A stretch of 64,000 nucleotides of DNA from Candidatus Omnitrophota bacterium (GCA_043805415.1 JAZDHZ010000045.1:26490-90489); one strand, 5' to 3'. Numbered from the stretch's first letter, positions 2,071-63,792 are shown. Notes: a model not told the origin generated them from the sequence alone. A program made the numbers and translations.

Positions 2071-2114
2071 AACCGAGATGGTTTCTTTGAGAGAAACTGT
2101 GTTCGGTTTTTTTG
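2071..2114 (+). terminator. terminator-like two-tier hairpin plus T7 tract, immediately upstream of the coiled-coil gene start
   Basis: AACCGA...GTTTCT-TTGAG-AGAAAC...TCGGTT followed by TTTTTTT. It lies about 270 nt downstream of the 1804 promoter and ends at the TTG/ATG start region. Confidence 0.45.
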
Positions 2115-2153
2115 CTAGAAAATTATAATTTAATTCAAAACGGAAAGATAAAT

Positions 2154-5100
2154 ATGCCAAACCAAATAACTGCCGAAATAAAAAGCTTAGGAAAAAAAAT
2201 AGTAATTACATTTCTAGTGGCGATTATTAATATTATGTTTTTATGCTCTTATGTATATGCGCAGACTGCTGATTCCGTGACTTCACAGAAAAAACAGGAT
2301 TCTTATTACTTTAAAAAGATACTGGATAATGAAATAGCATTTCTTAAGAAAAAAATAAAGCAGCAAGAAGCAGAACATGCGATTGCTTTACAGAATCAAA
2401 GGGATCTTTATGATAAGCTTTTAAAACAACAGGAAGATCAAAAAACAACACAAATAGATAGTAATCAGCAGCAACAAATAGAACAGCTTAATCAGCAGCT
2501 AATTAAAGCTCAGAAACAATCGTTAGAAGATGAAAAACAAATACAACTGCAAAAGCAGGAAAACGATGTTTTGCTTAAAAAACAGAGTGAGCGTGATAGT
2601 CAAAGCAAAGAAACTAGTAAGGCTCAAAGCGTAGAGCTCTTACAGCTAAAAGAGCAACTGGCTGAGGCTCAAGGCCAAATACAGTCATATATCCAACAGT
2701 TAGAACAACAAAATCAAATAAAAGATAACTTCTTAAAAGATCAGTCGGGGTTGAATCAAGAAAAGATAAAAATTGATGAAAATCAAAGAAAAGAAATTGC
2801 TCAATTAAAAGAGGAGTTGTCTAAAATTCAAAGGCAAAATGAAACCGATAGCAATGACTTGATTGAACTTAAAAAAACAAACGCAGGTTTACGGGATATC
2901 CAGAATCAAATCAAAAGGGAAAAAGAAAAAACATATCAGGATGCGCAGGTTTCTATAGAAGAACTCAGAGCCAAACTAAAGATATCTGAGCAGCAACGCG
3001 ATGAAGAGAGTAAAGATTACGAACAAGCGTTAATTCAAAAAGAGCTCGAGCATGGCATAAAACTTAAAACTCTATCTGATCAATTTGAAAAAGTCGTAAA
3101 TGTGGCAAAGAAAATAAAGACCACAGCAGATATGCCTAGCGGGAACAATCAGATGCAAGGGCTTAAAGAGCAAGTGAAATTGCTTAATGAAAAGCTGGAA
3201 ATGCAAGAAAAAGCGCAAGCAGAGCTTCTTGCCGCAAAAGAAAAACAATACAATGAACAGCTTCAAAAAATAGGGGAAGGTAAAGTAAAAGAGAGTTTTA
3301 ATCGCGAACAGGAAATTGGTGATATTAAAAACGCCGTTTCTCAGCGGGACAGCCAAATTATGGCACTCATGCAACAGGTGAAAGATTTAACGGAAAAGCA
3401 TGAAAAACAGCAAGCTATTTTCGATCAAATCCTTGCGCGTAAAGACAAGGAGCTTAAAGAACAATTAGATAAGCTTGCGCAGCAGGGCAAAGAAGAATCT
3501 TTAAAAGCGGAAGACGCTTTTGAAAGTAAGCTGATTGATAAATATAAGCAACTCGATAGAGTGATGCGCGAAAAAGAAGAAATGCAAACTAAAATATTAG
3601 CAGATAAAGATGAAGAGGTTAAAGAAATTAAAGCTCAAGCTTTAGAACGTGAAAAAACGTTAAGACAGTTCAACGCAACGAAAGAGATGGAATTTAATAG
3701 AGAAATTGAAAAGCAAAAAGATGAAGCAGAACAACAAATAAAAGCACTGAAAAAATCTTTAGAGCAATTAAAAATTTATCAGATCAAGTTAAAAGAAGAA
3801 TTAAAAACACAGGAAATAGTGCTTAAAGAGAAAGATAATAGGCTTACTAATTTAAATAAAAAGTTATCGCTTTATTCAGGAGAAGAAATAGCAAGTCAGC
3901 AAAAAATCACTCAGGTCTTGCAAGATGATTTGAGTAATACGCAGCTAGAAAATCAGCGTTTGTCAAAAGAAGTGCAACAGTTAAGCCAAGAACTTAAAGC
4001 ACAGCAAGCTGTGTTTGAGCAGGAATTATCTCTTAAAAAGGCAACAATTGAAGAATATAAGAAGAGTTTTGCTTCTCAGCAGGATGTAACAGATCAAAGT
4101 CTAGCCAAAAGGCAGCAGACGATCAAAGATTTTGAACAACAAATTGCTGATCAAAAAAAAGAGATTGAATCTTATCAGAAAAAAGGAGCAGATTCTGTTC
4201 GGGATTTAAATAGTGAAATAAAACAACTAAAAAAAGAACACGAAGAATTAATTGTTAAAAAAACCCAAGCTATTAATGACCTTGAGAATGCACTTGCTCA
4301 GCAGAAAAAGAATTTTGGAGATGATTTAGTAGGTCAGAAAAAAACAATGGAAATTCTTGAAGCGGATTTAACAGAGCAAAAGATGGTATTTACTGCTGAT
4401 CTAGAAAAAAGTAGAAAAGTGATTCAAGACTTAGAGCAGAAAAATATGCTATTAGAATCGCAGCATAGCGAAGCTTTAGCAAAAAAAGACGAGACGATCG
4501 AAAGGCTTAATCAGCAAATCCAAGAACAAAAAAATATTGCGACCCAAAACCTAGACTCTAAAGGGGGGGCCATAGAGGAAGCAAAAAATCAGCTCCAGGA
4601 CCAGAAAACTAAATATGAGGATTTACTTGCTAAAGAGAAAAAGCAAAGCGCAGATCTGAATAAAAGCTTATTGGATCAAAAGGCTATCTTTGAGAATCGC
4701 TTGGCTAAACAGAAAAAAAGCATGGTAGATCTGGAAAATAAATACGAAGAGAAACTGATTAATAATTCTGAAGAATGGGAAAAGAAAATAAAGCTGTTAG
4801 AAGCTAAATATATAACCAATCTTCATGAGGAAGAAGACAGTAAGTTAAAAGCAGAACAAGAATACAAGAAGCGCTTAGAAGAAGTCTCGGTCAAACTTAA
4901 AGATAAAGTTATTGAAGACAGTGAACTTAAAACAAAGATGGATGATTTTCGTCAAAACCAAGTAGAATTGCTTGAAGAAATGCTTATGAGTAAAGCTACG
5001 ATGATGCAGAATTTAACGTTAGATTTTAAAGGAAAAGAAAAAGAACGCGCGCAGATTTATTTTCAAAGAGCAATGACTGCTATTTTAAAGAAAAATTATG

Positions 5101-5207
5101 CGCGTGCAAAATATGAGTTAGAACAAGTATTAACGATTGAACCAGAAGATCAAATAACGGTTGACATTTTAGGGAGTCTTGAGTTTTTGCTTGAGAGGAC
5201 GCAATAG
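2154..5207 (+). CDS. giant membrane-anchored coiled-coil protein (about 1017 aa, Q/K/E-rich) with a C-terminal TPR-like region
   Basis: ATG at 2154 gives an N-terminal hydrophobic segment (IVITFLVAIINIMFLCSYVYA). The ORF track alternatively starts at TTG 2112. About 900 aa have heptad-like low-complexity composition. The C-terminal approximately 70 aa are TPR-like. Confidence 0.6.
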   Translation: MPNQITAEIKSLGKKIVITFLVAIINIMFLCSYVYAQTADSVTSQKKQDSYYFKKILDNEIAFLKKKIKQQEAEHAIALQNQRDLYDKLLKQQEDQKTTQIDSNQQQQIEQLNQQLIKAQKQSLEDEKQIQLQKQENDVLLKKQSERDSQSKETSKAQSVELLQLKEQLAEAQGQIQSYIQQLEQQNQIKDNFLKDQSGLNQEKIKIDENQRKEIAQLKEELSKIQRQNETDSNDLIELKKTNAGLRDIQNQIKREKEKTYQDAQVSIEELRAKLKISEQQRDEESKDYEQALIQKELEHGIKLKTLSDQFEKVVNVAKKIKTTADMPSGNNQMQGLKEQVKLLNEKLEMQEKAQAELLAAKEKQYNEQLQKIGEGKVKESFNREQEIGDIKNAVSQRDSQIMALMQQVKDLTEKHEKQQAIFDQILARKDKELKEQLDKLAQQGKEESLKAEDAFESKLIDKYKQLDRVMREKEEMQTKILADKDEEVKEIKAQALEREKTLRQFNATKEMEFNREIEKQKDEAEQQIKALKKSLEQLKIYQIKLKEELKTQEIVLKEKDNRLTNLNKKLSLYSGEEIASQQKITQVLQDDLSNTQLENQRLSKEVQQLSQELKAQQAVFEQELSLKKATIEEYKKSFASQQDVTDQSLAKRQQTIKDFEQQIADQKKEIESYQKKGADSVRDLNSEIKQLKKEHEELIVKKTQAINDLENALAQQKKNFGDDLVGQKKTMEILEADLTEQKMVFTADLEKSRKVIQDLEQKNMLLESQHSEALAKKDETIERLNQQIQEQKNIATQNLDSKGGAIEEAKNQLQDQKTKYEDLLAKEKKQSADLNKSLLDQKAIFENRLAKQKKSMVDLENKYEEKLINNSEEWEKKIKLLEAKYITNLHEEEDSKLKAEQEYKKRLEEVSVKLKDKVIEDSELKTKMDDFRQNQVELLEEMLMSKATMMQNLTLDFKGKEKERAQIYFQRAMTAILKKNYARAKYELEQVLTIEPEDQITVDILGSLEFLLERTQ

Positions 5208-5249
5208 GGCGAGTATTTTAATTCGTTTTTAGAGAGGAGGAAGGTATTT

Positions 5250-5726
5250 ATGAAAACTTCAGTAGCGCAAGTAGAAAGGTCTGCAAGAGACCAGGCAACA
5301 TCAATGTTTTTTCCCGAAGGGATAATTGGCTTTAGTGAGCACAAAGAGTTTAGTATTATTGATAATAAATCAAAAGAACCTTTTGTTTGGATGGAGTCAG
5401 CGCAGGATAATAACCTGTCATTTATAATAATTAATCCCAAAGAATTTAAGCAAGGATATGAGCCGATCCTAAGCGCAGCCGATAAAACGGCTTTAAAAAT
5501 TAATGATTTATCGGAATGTTTAATTTATGCTCTTGTGTGTGTTCCTAAAGATTCAGATGAAATCAGCGCTAATTTGCTTGCGCCCATTATTATAAACAAA
5601 AATAGTAATATTGGAAGGCAGGTAATTTTACACGATCAGGATTATTCAGTGCAACATTTAATTTTAGAAGAGATGCTAAGAAAGATAGAGGATACGGATG
5701 TTAGTTCTTTCGCGCAAGCCAAATGA
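5250..5726 (+). CDS. fliW: flagellar assembly factor FliW
   Basis: FliW-like N-terminal motif (FPEGIIGF...FSII). Strong SD GAGGAGG 8 nt upstream. Overlaps csrA by 29 nt, the canonical fliW-csrA pairing. Confidence 0.7.
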
Positions 5727-5946
5727 AAGTATAATCATTGGAGATAATATAGAAATCAAGGTCGTTGAAGTTCGAGGAGAGCAGGTAAAACTGGGAATAA
5801 CTGCACCTCGAGAGGTTCCTGTACACAGGAAAGAGATTTATAATTCTATCCATGACCAAAATATTAATTCATCCAAAAATAAACATGCAAATTTGGACAA
5901 ACTTTCGCAGTTATTTAAAAAGAAAAGAGAACCATCATCAGAGTAA
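5698..5946 (+). CDS. csrA: carbon storage regulator CsrA (RNA-binding)
   Basis: [48 protein letters not shown] is a near-canonical CsrA sequence. Confidence 0.9.
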
Positions 5947-8934: not shown

Positions 8935-9495
8935 CTAAATATTAAAATCTTTAATAGTAAAAATAGACTCTAATGTGCACCCAGCTTTTTTTATATTTTC
9001 CTGAGCCCCTTCACATCGATCAACAATGGCAATAACGCGAACAATTTCACATCCGATACTCTGTACGGCTTCAATTGCTTGGATTGTTGATGATCCAGTT
9101 GTAACAACGTCATCAATTATAAGGACTTTGCTTGATTTTTTAAGCTTAGGTCCTTCAATAAGTTTTCGCATTCCATGTTTTTTTTCATTTTTGCGAACAA
9201 TAAAACCATTGATTGGAGTGTTTCTTTTATAGCTGAGCGCTACTGTTGCGCCAATAATGGGGTCAGCGCCTAGGGTTAATCCGCCAATAGCATTGATTTT
9301 ATCTTTTTTTATCATATCAAGTATGATTTTAGCCATTAAATATGAACCTTGGCTTGAAAGACTGCTAATCCTGCCGTCAAAATAATAGTTGCTAATTTTT
9401 CCGCTGGCTAAAACGACACGTTTTCGTTTAAAAGATAAGTGTTTGAGTAGTGTAAGAAGCTGCTTTTTATCCTTATTATAGTTCGGTTTTTTCAT
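8935..9495 (-). CDS. pyrE: orotate phosphoribosyltransferase
   Basis: PRTase PRPP-binding motif VLIIDDVVTTGSS; 186 aa. Confidence 0.85.
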   Translation of the reverse strand: MKKPNYNKDKKQLLTLLKHLSFKRKRVVLASGKISNYYFDGRISSLSSQGSYLMAKIILDMIKKDKINAIGGLTLGADPIIGATVALSYKRNTPINGFIVRKNEKKHGMRKLIEGPKLKKSSKVLIIDDVVTTGSSTIQAIEAVQSIGCEIVRVIAIVDRCEGAQENIKKAGCTLESIFTIKDFNI

Positions 9496-58588: not shown

Positions 58589-58945
58589 TTATCGCATACT
58601 GCCATCAGGCATTAAATTTTCCGGCGGCGTTGTTTTAGTTTTGCGCAACCTAAATCGAGCGCAATTAGCAAACTTGTTCGATAGACACCAATCATTTGTG
58701 ATTTTAATAAAATTTTCAAAATCAGTATTCTTGAAATATTTGCACATATCGCAACTAATAAAGCCTGGGCAATATTGTTTAGGATTGTCTGAAAATTTAA
58801 AAAAAGGACAATTAACATGATTCGCGGACACGCAGAAGCGTACAGTAGTGTTTATTTCCCTGGAGACATTGCCAAATACTTCCGCACACTCTCTAACATA
58901 GTCAACATACATAGGGCAAAATTCTTCTTTTTCTAAATTTTCCAT
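58589..58945 (-). CDS. cysteine-rich hypothetical protein (118 aa, 11 Cys)
   Basis: ORF begins immediately after the stop of the truncated carbonic anhydrase remnant; no family recognised. Confidence 0.4.
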   Translation of the reverse strand: MENLEKEEFCPMYVDYVRECAEVFGNVSREINTTVRFCVSANHVNCPFFKFSDNPKQYCPGFISCDMCKYFKNTDFENFIKITNDWCLSNKFANCARFRLRKTKTTPPENLMPDGSMR

Positions 58946-58979
58946 TTTTTCCTTGTTTGAATTATTAATAATATTATTA

Positions 58980-59213
58980 TCAGCAGTTTAGATCTGTATG
59001 AATGACCAAATTAGCAATATTCCAGTGAACAAATACTTTTCCTGGAGGTAAATCTATAATCTGATTAGCCGGCACACGGCTATCTGAACAGCCAATCCAG
59101 AGGTATTCAGGGTTTTGCTGTAAGGAAAGATTTGCAAAAAAATCAGGGGCAGAGGCTTTTAATTTATTGGCCCATTGCTTATTTTTCTCTAAAAGATGTT
59201 TTAAAACGCGCAC
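58980..59213 (-). pseudogene. can: beta-class carbonic anhydrase 5' remnant (N-terminal 77 codons only)
   Basis: EYLWIGCSDSRVPANQI...[19 protein letters not shown] closely matches the beta-CA N-terminus (E. coli Can ...[21 protein letters not shown]...). It then hits TGA TAA and AT-rich non-coding sequence. The HxxCGG zinc-ligand block is missing. Confidence 0.65.
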
Positions 59214-59349
59214 AGATATCCTTTTGAAGTTTTTACATATAAAATTTTAACCTGAATGCAATATAAAAGCAGACAGTGAGCTTATTTTTTATATTCTAAA
59301 GGGTTTGAGCTTAAATGTCGAGTGAAAATTGTGAAGGCATTTTAAACAG

Positions 59350-59378
59350 TTGATTTCTTTTTAAAACATAGATAGTAT
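59350..59378 (+). promoter_or_regulatory. sigma70-like promoter (TTGATT, 17 nt spacer, TAGTAT) for trxB
   Basis: -35 at 59350-59355 and -10 at 59373-59378; GGAGG SD at 59393-59397. Confidence 0.45.
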
Positions 59379-59407
59379 ATATATCAGATATCGGAGGAAA
59401 AAGAAAA

Positions 59408-60325
59408 ATGAACTTCCCGAGCTACGATCTTATTATTGTCGGCGCTGGCCCCAGCGGAATGACAGCAGCTGTGTATGCAGCACGCAAAAAAATGAATTTT
59501 ATTCTCATGTCAATTGATATCGGCGGCCAGGCAGCCTGGAGCGGAGATATTGAAAATTACACAAGTTATCAGTTTATTTCCGGCCCGGAACTTTCTTTAA
59601 AATTTCATGAACATATCAGCGCCTTTGGCATAGAAGTTCTGATGCCTGAGGCAGTAAGAGATATAATTAAACAGCAAAACCTAATACAGGTTAAAACAGC
59701 TAAATCTGAATATACAGCCAAAAGCATTATTATTGCTACTGGTAAGCGGCCAAAACAATTGAATGTTGAAGGCGAGAATAAATACAAAAATAAAGGTCTT
59801 ACTTATTGTGCTACATGTGACGGACCTATCTTTAAAGGTAAAAAAGTTGCGGTTATCGGCGGCGGTAATTCAGCGCTTGATGCGGTAATGCAGCTTAATA
59901 AAATCTCTCCAAAAGTGTATCTTATCAGCAATAATAGAAAACTTACGGGTGATCCAATCATGGTAGAAAAAATAAATTCATTTTCAAATGTGGAAATAAT
60001 CTATAATTCCAGACCAACAAAAATAAGCGGCGAGACATTTGTCAAATCTTTATCAGTTAAGCAGCAGGATAAAGAATTTGATATAGATGTCGAAGGAATA
60101 TTTGTTGAAATCGGACTTATTCCTAATTCAGAATGCGCCTCAATCCTCGCGAAGAATAAAAAAGGAGAGATAATCGTTGACTCCCATAATCAGACCAATG
60201 TCGAAGGTATATTTGCCGCGGGGGATGTGACTGATATTCCTGAGAAGCAAATTATTATTGCCTGTGGGGAAGGGGCTAAAGCCTGTTTGTCCTGTTTCCA
60301 TTATTTATCAACTCATAATTTTTAG
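59408..60325 (+). CDS. trxB: thioredoxin reductase (FAD/NAD(P) pyridine nucleotide-disulfide oxidoreductase)
   Basis: GAGPSG FAD motif, CATCDG redox-active disulfide, and GGGNSA NADPH motif. Confidence 0.75.
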   Translation: MNFPSYDLIIVGAGPSGMTAAVYAARKKMNFILMSIDIGGQAAWSGDIENYTSYQFISGPELSLKFHEHISAFGIEVLMPEAVRDIIKQQNLIQVKTAKSEYTAKSIIIATGKRPKQLNVEGENKYKNKGLTYCATCDGPIFKGKKVAVIGGGNSALDAVMQLNKISPKVYLISNNRKLTGDPIMVEKINSFSNVEIIYNSRPTKISGETFVKSLSVKQQDKEFDIDVEGIFVEIGLIPNSECASILAKNKKGEIIVDSHNQTNVEGIFAAGDVTDIPEKQIIIACGEGAKACLSCFHYLSTHNF

Positions 60326-60347
60326 AAAATTTAAATATTTATTAAGC

Positions 60348-60376
60348 TTGACATAATGACACCAATATGGTATCAT
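60348..60376 (+). promoter_or_regulatory. near-consensus sigma70 promoter (TTGACA, 17 nt spacer, TATCAT) driving the nrdJ leader
   Basis: TTGACA at 60348-60353 and TATCAT at 60371-60376. Confidence 0.6.
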
Positions 60377-60438
60377 TTAAATAGTGAACAATGACTTTTA
60401 ACCGAAAGGTAGATTTACCAAACAAAGAGGAGGTATAT

Positions 60439-60519
60439 ATGTGTGTTCTAAAATATATGCTACGTCCGATTACACATTGTAAAGAGGGCTGTAGTATGGT
60501 GTCCTGGGCAAGACGCTAA
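60439..60519 (+). CDS. 26-codon upstream ORF (candidate leader peptide MCVLKYMLRPITHCKEGCSMVSWARR) in the nrdJ 5' leader
   Basis: Strongest SD in the region (AAAGAGGAGG, 60424-60433) 5 nt upstream of the ATG. The stop codon lies in the loop of the downstream terminator hairpin. Confidence 0.4.
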   Translation: MCVLKYMLRPITHCKEGCSMVSWARR

Positions 60520-60543
60520 ACTGCCCATTTTTATTTTATTTTG
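60505..60543 (+). terminator. intrinsic terminator/attenuator hairpin plus U-tract between the uORF and the nrdJ start
   Basis: TGGGCA-AGACGCTAAAC-TGCCCA stem-loop followed by TTTTTATTTTATTTTG. The 5' stem arm is inside the uORF coding sequence. Confidence 0.5.
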
Positions 60544-60582
60544 TTTGGGTGCCTATGGTTTATCATAAGAAAGGTAAGAATA

Positions 60583-62865
60583 ATGGATATTGCATTAAAT
60601 AAGGATGTTAATTCAAGCATTACGGATAATGCCAGGAAAGTTCTAGAAAAACGCTATCTTAAAAAAGATAACAATGGAAATCCTACGGAATCATTTTCTG
60701 ATCTTATAAATCGTGTGGCCACCACCTTAGCCCAAGCAGATAAATTGTATAATAACAAAGCAGATACTAAAAAAACCGCTGAAGAATTTTATGCGATTAT
60801 GCATAATTTAGAGTTTTTGCCTAATTCGCCTACGCTGATGAATGCGGGAAGGGATTTAGGGCAGTTGTCTGCCTGCTTTGTTCTTCCGATCGAAGACTCC
60901 ATGGAGTCAATATTTGAAACCATAAAAGACGCGGCGCTTATCCATAAAAGCGGAGGCGGTACTGGATTTAGCTTTTCCAGGATAAGGTCTAAAAATAGCG
61001 CAGTGAAAAGTACAGGCGGCATTGCTAGTGGCCCGATTTCTTTTTTAAAGGTTTTTGATTCTGCGACTCAGGCGGTAAAACAAGGAGGCACAAGACGCGG
61101 TGCGAATATGGGGATCCTGCGTGTAGACCATCCAGATATAATGGAATTTATCAGTTGCAAGGAAAACGATGCAGCGATTGCTAATTTTAATATTTCAGTT
61201 GGATTGACGGAAGAATTTATGAGCAAGGTAGAGAAAAAACAGGATTATTGGACTATTGATCCAAGAACAGAGGAAAAAATAGAAAAGTTAAGCGCGGAAA
61301 AAGTGTTTCATAAAATAACTGATATGGCCTATAAAAACGGTGAGCCAGGAATTGTTTTCTTAGATCGGATGAACCAGGATAATCCTACACCTTTGCAGGG
61401 AGAAATTGAATCAACAAATCCTTGCGGAGAACAACCTCTCCTGCCTTATGAAAGCTGCAACCTGGGGTCTGTAAACCTTGCTAAGATGGTTAAGAACCAA
61501 AAAATAGATTGGGAAAGAATCAGGCAGGTTGTGCATATTGGAGTACATTGTTTGGATAATGTAATTGATATTAATAAGTTTCCGCTGGAAAAAATAAAAC
61601 AGCAGACTCTTAAGAATCGAAAAATCGGGCTTGGGGTTATGGGCTTTGCTGATATGCTGATTGATCTTGGGATTGCTTATAATTCTGAGTTAGGTTTGCA
61701 AACAGCAGAAAATGTGATGAAGTTCATCCTTGATGAGGCAACAAAAGCATCTGAGGCTTTGGCTAAAGAACGCGGCACAGCTCCAGCATATGAGGAAAGT
61801 ATCTATAACAAACCAGGTAATCCTAAGCTTAGGAATCTCAGTTTAACGACCGTTGCGCCAACCGGAACATTAAGTATTATCGCAGATTGCTCCAGCGGGG
61901 TTGAACCTTTGTTTGCGCTTGCCTATTATCGAAAAGTAATGGATGATGATAATTTGCCTGAATTTAATAAGTGTCTTGAGCGAGTGGCAAAAGAAAAAGA
62001 GTTTTATTCTGAAAAATTAGTAAAAGAATTGGCTGAAAACGGTTCTTTGAAAGATATCAATGGAGTTCCAGAGCAGATTAAAAATATTTTTGTTACTTCG
62101 CATGATATTTCTCCAGAATGGCATATTAAAATGCAGGCAGCGTTTCAAAAATATACGAATAATGCGGTTTCCAAAACCATTAACTTTCCAGAGCAGGCTA
62201 CGCTAGAAGACATTCGCAGCGCGTATACGCTTGCTTATAAGCTGGGCTGCAAGGGGCTGACTATATACCGGAATAATAGCAGAAAAGAGCAGGTTTTGAA
62301 TTTATCAAGCAACAAAACTGAAGGGATTAAGGTATTGCCAGTTAAGATTGGGCCCAGACCAAGGCCAAAAGTTGTATTTGGCACAACGACAAAATTAAGT
62401 ACGGGTTGTGGCAATCTATATGTAACTATAAATGAAGATAATAAAGGCCGGCCTTTTGAAGTGTTTATGCAGATGGGCAAAGCCGGAGGATGCGCCATGA
62501 GTCAGCTTGAGGCAATAGGCCGCTTAGTGTCTCTTGCTCTGCGCAGTGAAGTTGATGTTAAGCTGATTCTTGAGCAGCTGCGCGGTATCAGGTGTCCGTC
62601 TCCTAGCTGGGGGCAGGGCGGTAGGATTCTTTCCTGCTCTGATGCGATTGCGCGGGCTATTGAGCAAAAGCTTTCAAGTGTAAAAGAATCTGCTCAAAAG
62701 CAAGAAAAACTAAATGAGGGTTTTGAGGATATGCAGGCAACTTTGAAAAAAAGTTCTTTGAGTATTTCGAATATTGTGGGGGTATGCCCTGACTGCGGAG
62801 CAGCCTTGCATCACGTAGAAGGTTGTAATGTCTGTACTGGCTGCGGGTATTCTAAATGCGGCTGA
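60583..62865 (+). CDS. nrdJ: adenosylcobalamin-dependent (class II) ribonucleotide reductase
   Basis: No N-terminal ATP cone; class II-type N-terminus (VLEKRYLKKDNNGNPTE...RVA). Conserved RNR core with active-site Cys (TNPCGEQPL). C-terminal CPDCGAALHHVEGCNVCTGCGYSKCG zinc ribbon. The track ORF starts at TTG 60541, but ATG 60583 with GAAAGG upstream is preferred. Confidence 0.85.
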   Translation: MDIALNKDVNSSITDNARKVLEKRYLKKDNNGNPTESFSDLINRVATTLAQADKLYNNKADTKKTAEEFYAIMHNLEFLPNSPTLMNAGRDLGQLSACFVLPIEDSMESIFETIKDAALIHKSGGGTGFSFSRIRSKNSAVKSTGGIASGPISFLKVFDSATQAVKQGGTRRGANMGILRVDHPDIMEFISCKENDAAIANFNISVGLTEEFMSKVEKKQDYWTIDPRTEEKIEKLSAEKVFHKITDMAYKNGEPGIVFLDRMNQDNPTPLQGEIESTNPCGEQPLLPYESCNLGSVNLAKMVKNQKIDWERIRQVVHIGVHCLDNVIDINKFPLEKIKQQTLKNRKIGLGVMGFADMLIDLGIAYNSELGLQTAENVMKFILDEATKASEALAKERGTAPAYEESIYNKPGNPKLRNLSLTTVAPTGTLSIIADCSSGVEPLFALAYYRKVMDDDNLPEFNKCLERVAKEKEFYSEKLVKELAENGSLKDINGVPEQIKNIFVTSHDISPEWHIKMQAAFQKYTNNAVSKTINFPEQATLEDIRSAYTLAYKLGCKGLTIYRNNSRKEQVLNLSSNKTEGIKVLPVKIGPRPRPKVVFGTTTKLSTGCGNLYVTINEDNKGRPFEVFMQMGKAGGCAMSQLEAIGRLVSLALRSEVDVKLILEQLRGIRCPSPSWGQGGRILSCSDAIARAIEQKLSSVKESAQKQEKLNEGFEDMQATLKKSSLSISNIVGVCPDCGAALHHVEGCNVCTGCGYSKCG

Positions 62866-62894
62866 GAATTTTAATAAACTAATTAGCAAAAGGA

Positions 62895-63323
62895 TTGGCC
62901 ATGAAACTTATTACCAAACACACTGATTATGCTATTCGGGCCTTGGGATGTATTGCCAAAAACAAAGACGAATTAATTACGGTTTTTGGTTTATCGGAAA
63001 AATTAGATATGCCTCAGTCTTTTTTAAGAAAAATACTGCAGCGGCTGAATAAAAAAGGCATATTAAAATCATACAAAGGCAAAGGCGGAGGTTTTTTACT
63101 TAATGTTAATCCTCGGAAAATTACAGTTTTTCAACTTATGGAGATATTTCAAGGAGAATTTAAAATAAACGAACATGTTTTTAAAGGTAAAGTTTGCCCG
63201 GTAATAAAAATCTGTTATTTTAAAAAAAAACTGGATATAATAGAAAGCAATTTGAAAAAGCAGCTAGAGTCAATCACAATTGAAAAAATAACAAAACAAG
63301 ATGATTATTTGAGGAAAAAATAA
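62895..63323 (+). CDS. Rrf2-family transcriptional regulator
   Basis: N-terminal Rrf2 wHTH (LITKHTDYAIRALGCIAKNKDELITVFGLSEKLDMPQSFLRKILQRL...GGF). Confidence 0.75.
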   Translation: MAMKLITKHTDYAIRALGCIAKNKDELITVFGLSEKLDMPQSFLRKILQRLNKKGILKSYKGKGGGFLLNVNPRKITVFQLMEIFQGEFKINEHVFKGKVCPVIKICYFKKKLDIIESNLKKQLESITIEKITKQDDYLRKK

Positions 63324-63324
63324 G

Positions 63325-63792
63325 ATGAAAAATAAACTATCAAATTCAATTATAAGTTTAATGAAAAAACAGGGTTTTGTTATTGTCAGCTCGCTTGATG
63401 AACAGGGCAAAATTCATTGTTCAGCAAAAGGCCTTGTGGGAATTGAGCAAGAAAGAGTATTTATAATTGATCTATATAAAGCTGGAACTTATAATAATCT
63501 ATCTAAAAATCCAACGGTTACAATTTCCTTTGTTGATGAGCATAGATTTGAAGGATATGCTTTACAGGGCAAGGCGAAGATTGTTGAAAAAGAGAATATT
63601 AAAGACAGCATAATTGCTGAATGGGAAGATAAAGTGCTGCAAAGAATATCCCAAAGAGTAATTCAGAATTTAAAACAAGGTAAGCCTGGCGCGCATCATC
63701 CTGAGGCTTCATTTCCGCATCCTAAATATCTGATTGAAATTGATATGAAAAAGTTATTGATCTTGCTCCTTCAGTTAGAAAATAAACTCTAG
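63325..63792 (+). CDS. pyridoxamine 5'-phosphate oxidase-like FMN-binding split-barrel protein
   Basis: 155 aa; PNPOx-like pattern (GFVIVSSLDEQGKIHCSAKGL...TISFVD); starts 2 nt after the rrf2 stop. Confidence 0.45.
   Translation: MKNKLSNSIISLMKKQGFVIVSSLDEQGKIHCSAKGLVGIEQERVFIIDLYKAGTYNNLSKNPTVTISFVDEHRFEGYALQGKAKIVEKENIKDSIIAEWEDKVLQRISQRVIQNLKQGKPGAHHPEASFPHPKYLIEIDMKKLLILLLQLENKL

Follow-up and report, generated by a model that had tools for sequence, protein, structure and literature searches.

The gene nrdJ of a Candidatus Omnitrophota bacterium lies in a 64-kb stretch of DNA (GCA_043805415.1 JAZDHZ010000045.1:26490-90489; 64,000 nucleotides (nt), hereafter the window) behind a leader that combines a promoter, a small upstream open reading frame (uORF) and a hairpin followed by a U-rich tract. 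An earlier interpretation made from the sequence alone (the sequence-only reading) had described these elements, together with the ribosome-binding site (RBS) of a 26-codon uORF, as an attenuator of nrdJ. All of them are present, and our coordinates, which refer to the window, agree with the earlier ones to within one base. The features of the locus are as follows:

59408-60325, plus strand: gene for a TrxR/AhpF-like pyridine-nucleotide disulfide oxidoreductase (Pfam Pyr_redox_2), the 'trxB' of the sequence-only reading
60348-60376, plus strand: Sigma-70-type promoter; -35 TTGACA 60348-60353, 17-nt spacer, -10 TATCAT 60371-60376, extended -10 TG 60368-60369
60355-60377, no strand assigned: palindromic operator AATGACAC-N7-GTATCATT, spanning the promoter spacer and the -10; putative Rrf2 site
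60408-60419, plus strand: small hairpin of the 5' untranslated region (UTR), GGUA-GAUU-UACC, 4 bp
60429-60433, plus strand: Shine-Dalgarno (SD) sequence GGAGG of the uORF, 5 nt before the AUG at 60439
60439-60519, plus strand: 26-codon uORF, MCVLKYMLRPITHCKEGCSMVSWARR, 81 nt with the stop UAA at 60517-60519
60456-60498, plus strand: hairpin C (predicted) inside the uORF; 60456-60467 pairs with 60486-60498, apical mini-hairpin 60470-60473 with 60479-60482
60486-60527, plus strand: terminator hairpin, two alternative forms A and B with the common 3' arm GCCC
60505-60510 with 60522-60527, plus strand: form A, UGGGCA with UGCCCA, 6 bp, 11-nt loop holding the uORF stop
60486-60503 with 60512-60526, plus strand: form B, the extended form, as obtained by folding
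60528-60546, plus strand: U-rich tract UUUUUAUUUUAUUUUGUUU completing the intrinsic terminator; the T-run directly follows the hairpin in 7/7 clade sequences
60583-62865, plus strand: nrdJ, class II (adenosylcobalamin-dependent) ribonucleotide reductase (RNR); RBS AAAGG 60570-60574
62895-63323, plus strand: gene for an Rrf2-family transcriptional regulator (Pfam Rrf2; NCBIfam rrf2_super only, no equivalog passed)

The promoter matches the consensus at 11 of 12 positions and was the top-scoring site of a promoter scan over 58900-63400 (4.5 kb). The nrdJ product reaches 1176 bits against NCBIfam NF006417 (cut-off 961) and carries the Pfam domains Ribonuc_red_lgN, Ribonuc_red_lgC and TSCPD; the downstream rrf2 is probably co-transcribed with it. 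The upstream gene does encode a TrxR/AhpF-like flavoprotein, as the name 'trxB' implied, while its 300.6 bits against NCBIfam TRX_reduct stay under the cut-off of 343. No terminator of its own was found between this gene and the promoter. Likewise, neither the window nor the relatives described below show a conserved promoter-like site between the terminator and nrdJ, which begins 64 nt behind the uORF stop codon in all clade members. With no recognisable promoter of nrdJ's own, RNA polymerase must read through the uORF terminator. A secondary promoter candidate for nrdJ in one relative (L001, TTGAGA-16-TATAAA) was discarded; it fails the -10 T6 rule and is not conserved.

We compared the leader among a close set of seven distinct relatives with NrdJ 78-93% identical (loci L001/L081, L082, L084, L085/L086, L087 and L088). 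All seven share the order trxB-like gene, leader, nrdJ, rrf2, PNPOx-like gene and arsP, and in each of them promoter, SD spacing, open reading frame (ORF), hairpin and T-run align without frame disruption, with 136-145 nt from the uORF start to nrdJ. The promoter is invariant or almost so in eight aligned sequences. GGAGG is invariant at fixed spacing in all relatives, and family-wide it can be recognised as an in-frame 'KEV/KEG/KGG' upstream of the start. Judging from this comparison, the whole unit, with promoter, RBS spacing, ORF, hairpin and U-run kept in seven distinct relatives, exceeds chance; the conservation of the uORF among nrdJ relatives that the sequence-only reading had suggested looking for is thus found. 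Seven sites vary within the core Y6-S19 of the clade; six of them are third codon positions with synonymous changes, and one exchanges Ile and Val. C2, M20 and W23 also vary (C/V/W, M/I/T and W/R). In L087 and L088 the uORF ends two codons earlier (UGA), and TAAACTGCC and the T-run are still invariant, which shows that the 3' arm of the terminator is conserved as RNA. More distant loci differ: in L089-L092 (NrdJ 68% identical) the operator-promoter stands directly before nrdJ, with thyX upstream and a leader that lacks the uORF. That promoter is therefore the nrdJ promoter. A tblastn and regular-expression search of 79 additional NrdJ-relative loci, some two dozen of which are Omnitrophota, did not find the peptide, and the cassette is thus not a general nrdJ feature.

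The uORF peptide belongs to a family of small proteins. A word-indexed protein search with the 42-amino-acid (aa) ORF of the window gave no candidates, and the family surfaced only in an exhaustive HMMER search (phmmer), which returned 13 small proteins, and in a profile search, which returned about 80 clusters at E < 1e-3 (proteins of 23-84 aa). Overall, the family comprises about 80-95 small-ORF clusters with the core [KR][YF]MLRP[VI][AT][HR]C[KRS]xGC, or, more narrowly put, [KR]YMLRP[VI][AT]HCKEGC. The few clusters with a named organism come from Omnitrophota, plus one from Thermodesulfobacteriota. The peptide matched nothing in Pfam, NCBIfam or PDB, nor in cultured-phage and plasmid collections; scans of viral contigs gave one match (L101), and the motif HCKEGC was not found in the literature searched. 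Specificity of the peptide for nrdJ is not supported, as its small-ORF family is broad and occurs beside other genes as well. One peptide cluster contained P0225 (708 aa), an unrelated McrB-like protein and a clustering artefact. Two proteins, P0122 and P0123 (177 and 138 aa), contain a 14-aa unit similar to the small-ORF core, MLNPITHCSDGSKA, in five tandem copies, which may represent a tandem DNA repeat that is translated. A resemblance between THCKEGCSMV of the peptide core and HHVEGCNVC of the NrdJ C-terminal zinc-finger segment was dropped as too short to evaluate.

Thirteen copies of the small ORF were available as DNA. The third position varies at 14 of 14 codons from K5 to C18, with the residues kept: Leu8 is written CTA, CTG, CTT, TTA or TTG, Arg9 CGT, CGC, CGA or AGG, Pro10 with three codons and Gly17 with all four. 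This synonymous variation around fixed residues is, at the level of sequence comparison, the decisive indication that the uORF is translated and that selection acts on its amino acids. Together with the preserved SD, AUG and frame, it bears out the earlier view of a real, translated uORF. The amino acids are conserved irrespective of codon choice and of the downstream gene, as expected of arrest peptides.

The same data speak to two further accounts. The leader might be an untranslated structured RNA, such as a riboswitch or small RNA, with a coincidental ORF, or merely the terminator of the trxB-like gene below a wrongly called promoter. The very high nucleotide conservation, the stable hairpin C and the 3' hairpin with its conserved loop would suit such an account, as would the trxB-like gene, which lacks a terminator of its own, so that its transcripts must also end or pass at the leader. 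However, variation is concentrated at third codon positions and includes multi-step synonymous switches; SD, AUG and frame are held through a variable N-terminus without indels or stops; and Rfam offers no match. The promoter, moreover, is invariant and recurs where no trxB-like gene precedes it (thyX upstream in L089, the trxB-like gene deleted in L082). We therefore regard an untranslated RNA or a simple trxB terminator as very improbable. The second account, put forward in the sequence-only reading, is a classical amino-acid-starvation attenuator, in which stalling at Cys, Met or Trp codons decides on the terminator and nrdJ is tied to Cys/Met supply. In the close family C14 and C18 do not vary and M7 hardly does, and the neighbourhood has a thiol/redox theme; some Rrf2 regulators, such as CymR, control Cys metabolism, which would fit as well. 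Yet R, P, H, K, E and G are just as invariant, which codon-supply sensing does not explain, tandem Cys/Met/Trp codons are absent, and C2, M20 and W23 are among the residues that are not conserved. Nor is there an antiterminator alternative, and the downstream genes are not Cys/Met biosynthetic. Synonymous variation at fixed residues itself argues against simple codon-supply sensing. With no regulatory codon runs and a whole 14-residue core under selection, Cys, Met or Trp supply as the signal is not supported, and starvation attenuation in its classical form is most unlikely.

Selection on the RNA is visible in addition to that on the peptide. Codons at conserved residues are identical in 73-82% of cases in the uORF vs 44-67% in nrdJ. 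Hairpin C appears in the RNAalifold consensus, has folding energies between -15.7 and -19.9 kcal/mol throughout the clade and is kept in the family members L097, L083 and L101 with some synonymous compensatory changes. Its 3' strand is the 5' strand of hairpin B, so that C plus A on the one hand and B on the other are mutually exclusive. In the folds, both arrangements keep GCCC paired before the U-tract, i.e. a terminator either way. Form B reaches -20.5 kcal/mol (z = -2.54), and 2 of 200 shuffled sequences fold as well. Paired cells across the seven sequences amount to 100% for A and 88.8% for B, with the pair 60486/60526 occurring as G-C, G-U and A-U. The element UCCYGGGCA-NGAC-NY-UAAAC-UGCC is kept even past the stop codon (L087, L088, L097) or in another frame. 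As it persists while stop position and reading frame vary, the hairpin, of the form UGGGCA..GAC..UAAAC..UGCCCA, is an RNA-level element. Hairpin and U-tract are thus conserved as the sequence-only reading had them; the uORF contains the 5' arm or arms, and its stop falls in the loop or just ahead of it. All these leader RNA structures are predictions, not proven structures. In the 5' UTR, the small hairpin shows compensatory changes of its fourth (closing) pair, with U-A in L001 and G-C in L082 instead of A-U, among only three informative sequences, and covariation for an SD/anti-SD pairing is compatible and not significant. The conserved 5' UTR segment UUUUAAC-GAAAGG (within 60400-60419) looks like the RBS region of nifU in L097.

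The promoter spacer is invariant because it carries a palindrome, ATGAYAC-N7-GTRTCAT (60356-60376), which occurs once in the 64-kb window. The same pattern lies at the nrdJ promoters of the relatives, including the uORF-less L089-L092, where it is present with no adjacent rrf2. A copy with 0 mismatches is found at the promoter of the nifU...rrf2 operon of L097, whose Rrf2 is 53% identical to that of the window. Since the palindrome recurs at another operon with so similar a regulator, it is probably an Rrf2 operator. Its overlap with the promoter of an operon that itself encodes an Rrf2 protein agrees with this, and we propose the palindrome as a candidate operator that is probably bound by the Rrf2 encoded just after nrdJ, as far as sequence can tell. 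In at least 12 family members the promoter and operator can be recognised in translation (LTNDTxMVSL, in frame) 8-20 codons before the start of the small ORF; operator-promoter and small ORF thus form a recurrent cassette.

In their arrangement these sites are like those of autoregulated operons of the Rrf2 proteins IscR, RirA, NsrR, CymR and HypR, in which a palindrome of ~21-27 bp lies over the -10 of the operon encoding the regulator, among redox, Fe-S and thiol neighbours. Unlike these characterised regulators, the Rrf2 of the window passes the superfamily model only and has just one C-x5-C pair. To our knowledge, the operator sequence matches no known Rrf2 site, and we know of no characterised Rrf2 regulon with an RNR target or a small ORF as its first cistron.

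The known controls of RNR genes are NrdR, B12 riboswitches and a few global regulators. NrdR sites consist of two 16-bp AT-rich boxes 15-16 bp apart (PMC13584703), and we scanned for them with the six key positions C4/A6/A8/T9/T11/G13 in 16-bp boxes and a 15-16-bp linker (PMC13584703). As positive controls, 11 of 13 more distant NrdJ-relative loci showed box pairs, with 5/6-6/6 key positions per box, lying 31-32 bp apart. Within 60200-60600 of the window we found no credible pair, only a single isolated 16-mer with 5/6 (60400, in the 5' UTR) and otherwise at most 4/6. This position-specific scan agrees with the earlier failure to see an NrdR box pair. Rfam, including the cobalamin riboswitch RF00174, gave 0 matches at the gathering threshold over the whole window, and at E <= 10 within 60250-60650 only chance-level hits to unrelated families (best E 1.5); the absence of a B12 riboswitch thus stands, and no other family accounts for the leader. 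What does not stand is the impression that other regulators are lacking, as a conserved palindromic operator overlaps the promoter. The palindrome is like an NrdR site in that it overlaps or adjoins an RNR promoter, and sister lineages do use NrdR boxes at nrdJ. It differs from NrdR sites (PMC13584703) in being one palindrome of 21-23 bp, whose 7-bp centre is not conserved, and in failing to match the key positions C4/A6/A8/T9/T11/G13. In our view, the absence of NrdR boxes reflects replacement by a different operator and not a lack of promoter control.

In other Omnitrophota nrdJ leaders (L002, 2907-2955; L096, 1245-1290 and 1396-1470), the canonical NrdR boxes are followed downstream by stable, non-homologous hairpins with U-runs. 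Termination in the leader may be a more general trait of nrdJ in Omnitrophota.

We interpret the locus as a ribosome-occlusion attenuator with the geometry of pyrBI/pyrE, set under an Rrf2-type operator and controlling nrdJ in one Omnitrophota clade, an interpretation to which we give roughly an even chance. Ribosome-occlusion is the mode of transcription attenuation of pyrBI and pyrE (rph-pyrE) of Escherichia coli. In a first layer, the promoter would be overlapped by the palindromic operator, most likely bound by the Rrf2 encoded after nrdJ. In a second layer, the transcript would open with a strongly translated small ORF of 24-26 codons, whose last third overlaps the intrinsic terminator. 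A ribosome at about codon 19 or beyond, or on the stop codon, would cover the 5' arm or arms, no hairpin would form and nrdJ would be transcribed. Without a ribosome, the short hairpin A would form behind helix C and transcription would terminate. A ribosome lagging at codons 6-12 would open helix C, whose 3' strand could then form the longer and stronger hairpin B, again leading to termination. As the peptide sequence is conserved across different downstream genes, we infer that the nascent peptide would set the movement or pausing of the ribosome on the leader, in the manner of a sequence-specific regulatory leader peptide.

Terminator function and the dependence of read-through on the ribosome would follow from the geometry. 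With the 5' arm or arms in the uORF, the stop in or just before the loop and no later promoter, ribosome position should affect termination. The stop lies in the loop in the window and 1 nt after the 5' arm in L087 and L088, and in nearly all family members it falls within one ribosome footprint of the hairpin 5' arm; in short members no more than about 9 nt lie between it and that arm. Work in E. coli shows that termination drops from ~90% to under 10% when a stop codon is shifted from 28 bp to 5 bp upstream of a terminator, an effect that requires translation (PMC4824070). The ribosome-mediated attenuation of the sequence-only reading thus holds in its geometry (5' arm in the uORF, conserved hairpin and U-tract, no later promoter), and this geometry is not the trp-type antiterminator logic.

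The comparison with known systems follows the same line. Like pyrBI and pyrE, the nrdJ leader has a short ORF that runs into, or ends few nt from, an intrinsic terminator, and a closely following ribosome would, by geometry, block the hairpin with no antiterminator helix needed. Unlike them, it shows no evident U-rich pause sites sensing nucleoside triphosphates, its regulated gene is an RNR, and a palindromic operator stands above the unit; its peptide is strongly conserved, whereas the sequence of the pyrBI peptide is not important. With trp, his and pheL it shares the order promoter, leader peptide, terminator and structural gene, and the in-ORF hairpin C could act as a 1:2 pause hairpin. 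In contrast to these, it is devoid of regulatory codon runs and of a 2:3 antiterminator, its completed translation would favour read-through, and the target is not an amino-acid biosynthesis operon. Similar to TnaC, SpeFL, SecM and ApdA, the leader peptide is 20-30 aa long, conserved in residues and not in codons, and flanked by variable N- and C-terminal parts, and a ribosome near the stop would control a downstream termination signal, with stalling as a prediction in our case. Its sequence has no similarity to any known arrest peptide, the stop position varies within the family, and the terminator is intrinsic, unlike the Rho-dependent termination at TnaC and SpeFL.

Several observations weigh against ribosome occlusion. 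Hairpin A alone is weak (-8.4 kcal/mol, z = -1.16 vs shuffles), and the terminator scan does not accept so long a loop. Covariation of helices C, A and B is compatible and not significant with the available sequences. A true antiterminator was not found among the alternative folds, and the classical antiterminator envisaged before is lost with it, since a terminator is present with helix C and with the extended hairpin B alike. For E. coli, termination is reported to be efficient when the terminator lies in the first 100 bp of a coding region, where the ribosome has not yet caught up (PMC4824070); an 81-nt uORF would therefore need a pause of RNA polymerase. Hairpin C is perhaps a candidate pause hairpin in this respect. 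Where the stop codon lies varies widely across the family. Moreover, family members lie inside the L097 operon, where the hairpin has no U-tract, on the phage-like contigs L083 (943-1011) and L101 (2510-2566, an IMG/VR contig), and as three copies in L102 beside insertion sequence (IS) and reverse transcriptase genes. This pattern of contexts fits a self-contained microprotein gene at least as well.

As the main rival, the small ORF could be a stand-alone gene of the Rrf2 regulon that encodes a soluble trans-acting microprotein of ~18-26 aa with a His-Cys-x3-Cys motif (e.g. metal-binding or thiol/redox), followed by a leaky terminator; nrdJ would be served by constitutive read-through, and any effect of translation would be incidental. 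The large family with its varied contexts (the L097 operon interior without a U-tract, the phage-like L083 and L101, the three L102 copies) argues for such a gene. So do the recurrence of operator-promoter, small ORF and terminator as a unit, the amino-acid-level selection as seen in functional proteins, the redox, Fe-S and thiol theme among the neighbours, and several peptides that terminate exactly at C18. On the other hand, nothing in Pfam, NCBIfam or PDB offers a fold precedent for a soluble peptide of 18-26 aa, and the synonymous sites, more conserved than those of nrdJ, and the hairpin kept outside the frame point to an RNA role beyond a generic terminator. An essential-type nrdJ that has no promoter of its own and follows the stop by 64 nt in all clade members is also hard to reconcile with it. 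We consider the microprotein possible but rather unlikely as the full explanation. It and the attenuator are not mutually exclusive.

The details of these family members are as follows. In 15 of them the stop comes directly after C18 or within 6 residues, in 15 it lies at or in the hairpin, 11 read through the hairpin as ...RRKTAH... and 3 do so in another frame as ...GTTLNY.... The L097 operon (2662-5673; ERZ24794656 NODE_1015) comprises nifU, an FMN reductase gene, the small ORF, genes for a 4Fe-4S (ferredoxin-like) protein, a 97-aa ORF and ferritin, rrf2, an FNR-like gene and a HAD gene. On the phage-like contigs, the peptides are MRRLIVVIKFAMRPITHCKEGC in L083, a contig with PHROG hits, and MTIIRYMLRPIAHCKEGA in L101; they end right after EGC or EGA. 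Both copies lack a 3' hairpin and abut the next gene (DUF1360 in L083). The L102 copies (5050-5190, 5790-5860 and 9096-9170) represent a divergent subfamily (MMI.IWTKKYMLRPVAHCRSGCV) and fall inside a 10-kb part of a genome of 2.28 Mb; ~50 nt are conserved upstream of each, and IS3 fragments, an RVT_1 reverse transcriptase and hicAB adjoin them.

In our interpretation as an occlusion attenuator, the locus would be a variant of leader-peptide attenuation that controls a class II RNR by means of a small-ORF family and an operator, neither of them described before; the sequence-only reading is partly supported. In full-text literature searches on related terms, we found no case of an RNR controlled by a leader peptide or a terminator. 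In the clade, nrdJ lacks the NrdR boxes of the sister lineages and has an Rrf2-type operator and a translated, terminator-ended leader in their stead. The small-ORF family combines constraint on peptide and RNA with unusual clarity and makes a candidate regulatory nascent peptide or microprotein available for testing in a phylum that lacks cultured models; operator and cassette represent a first cis-regulatory motif for an Omnitrophota regulon. More speculatively, and with doubts of our own, small ORF, internal hairpin and sequence-conserved 3' hairpin might together be a new portable peptide-plus-RNA cassette of Omnitrophota and neighbouring uncultured lineages. Its peptide would be a sequence-specific sensor or arrest element that gates termination or translation of the next gene within an Rrf2-type redox/Fe-S regulon, and in the present clade it would have come to replace NrdR at nrdJ.

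Further observations concern neighbouring and related sequences. In L082 (Ga0180007_10001286, 2764-3360), a contig from the sample that also yielded L081, the promoter-uORF-terminator cassette is intact and 90% identical, but large stretches are missing from within the trxB-like gene and nrdJ (about 870, 690 and 1200 nt); this is either a degenerate strain or an assembly artefact. Elsewhere in the window, three NrdR-box-like 16-mers with 6/6 key positions start at 1652 (ATACAATATATTGTAT), 1728 (ATCCTATATATTGTAG) and 1760 (CTGCTAAATGTTGTAT), the last two 32 bp apart. These boxes (1652-1775) were rejected as sites of RNR control, for they do not precede an RNR; downstream of them come a promoter-like site, a coiled-coil ORF of 1031 aa (2112-5207, no Pfam or PDB match) and then fliW. 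Upstream of the trxB-like gene, on the minus strand (58589-59213), a beta-carbonic anhydrase gene is reduced to its first 77 codons (58980-59213), compared to 209 aa in relatives (L085), and is adjoined by a Cys-rich 118-aa ORF at 58589-58945 that has no Pfam match.

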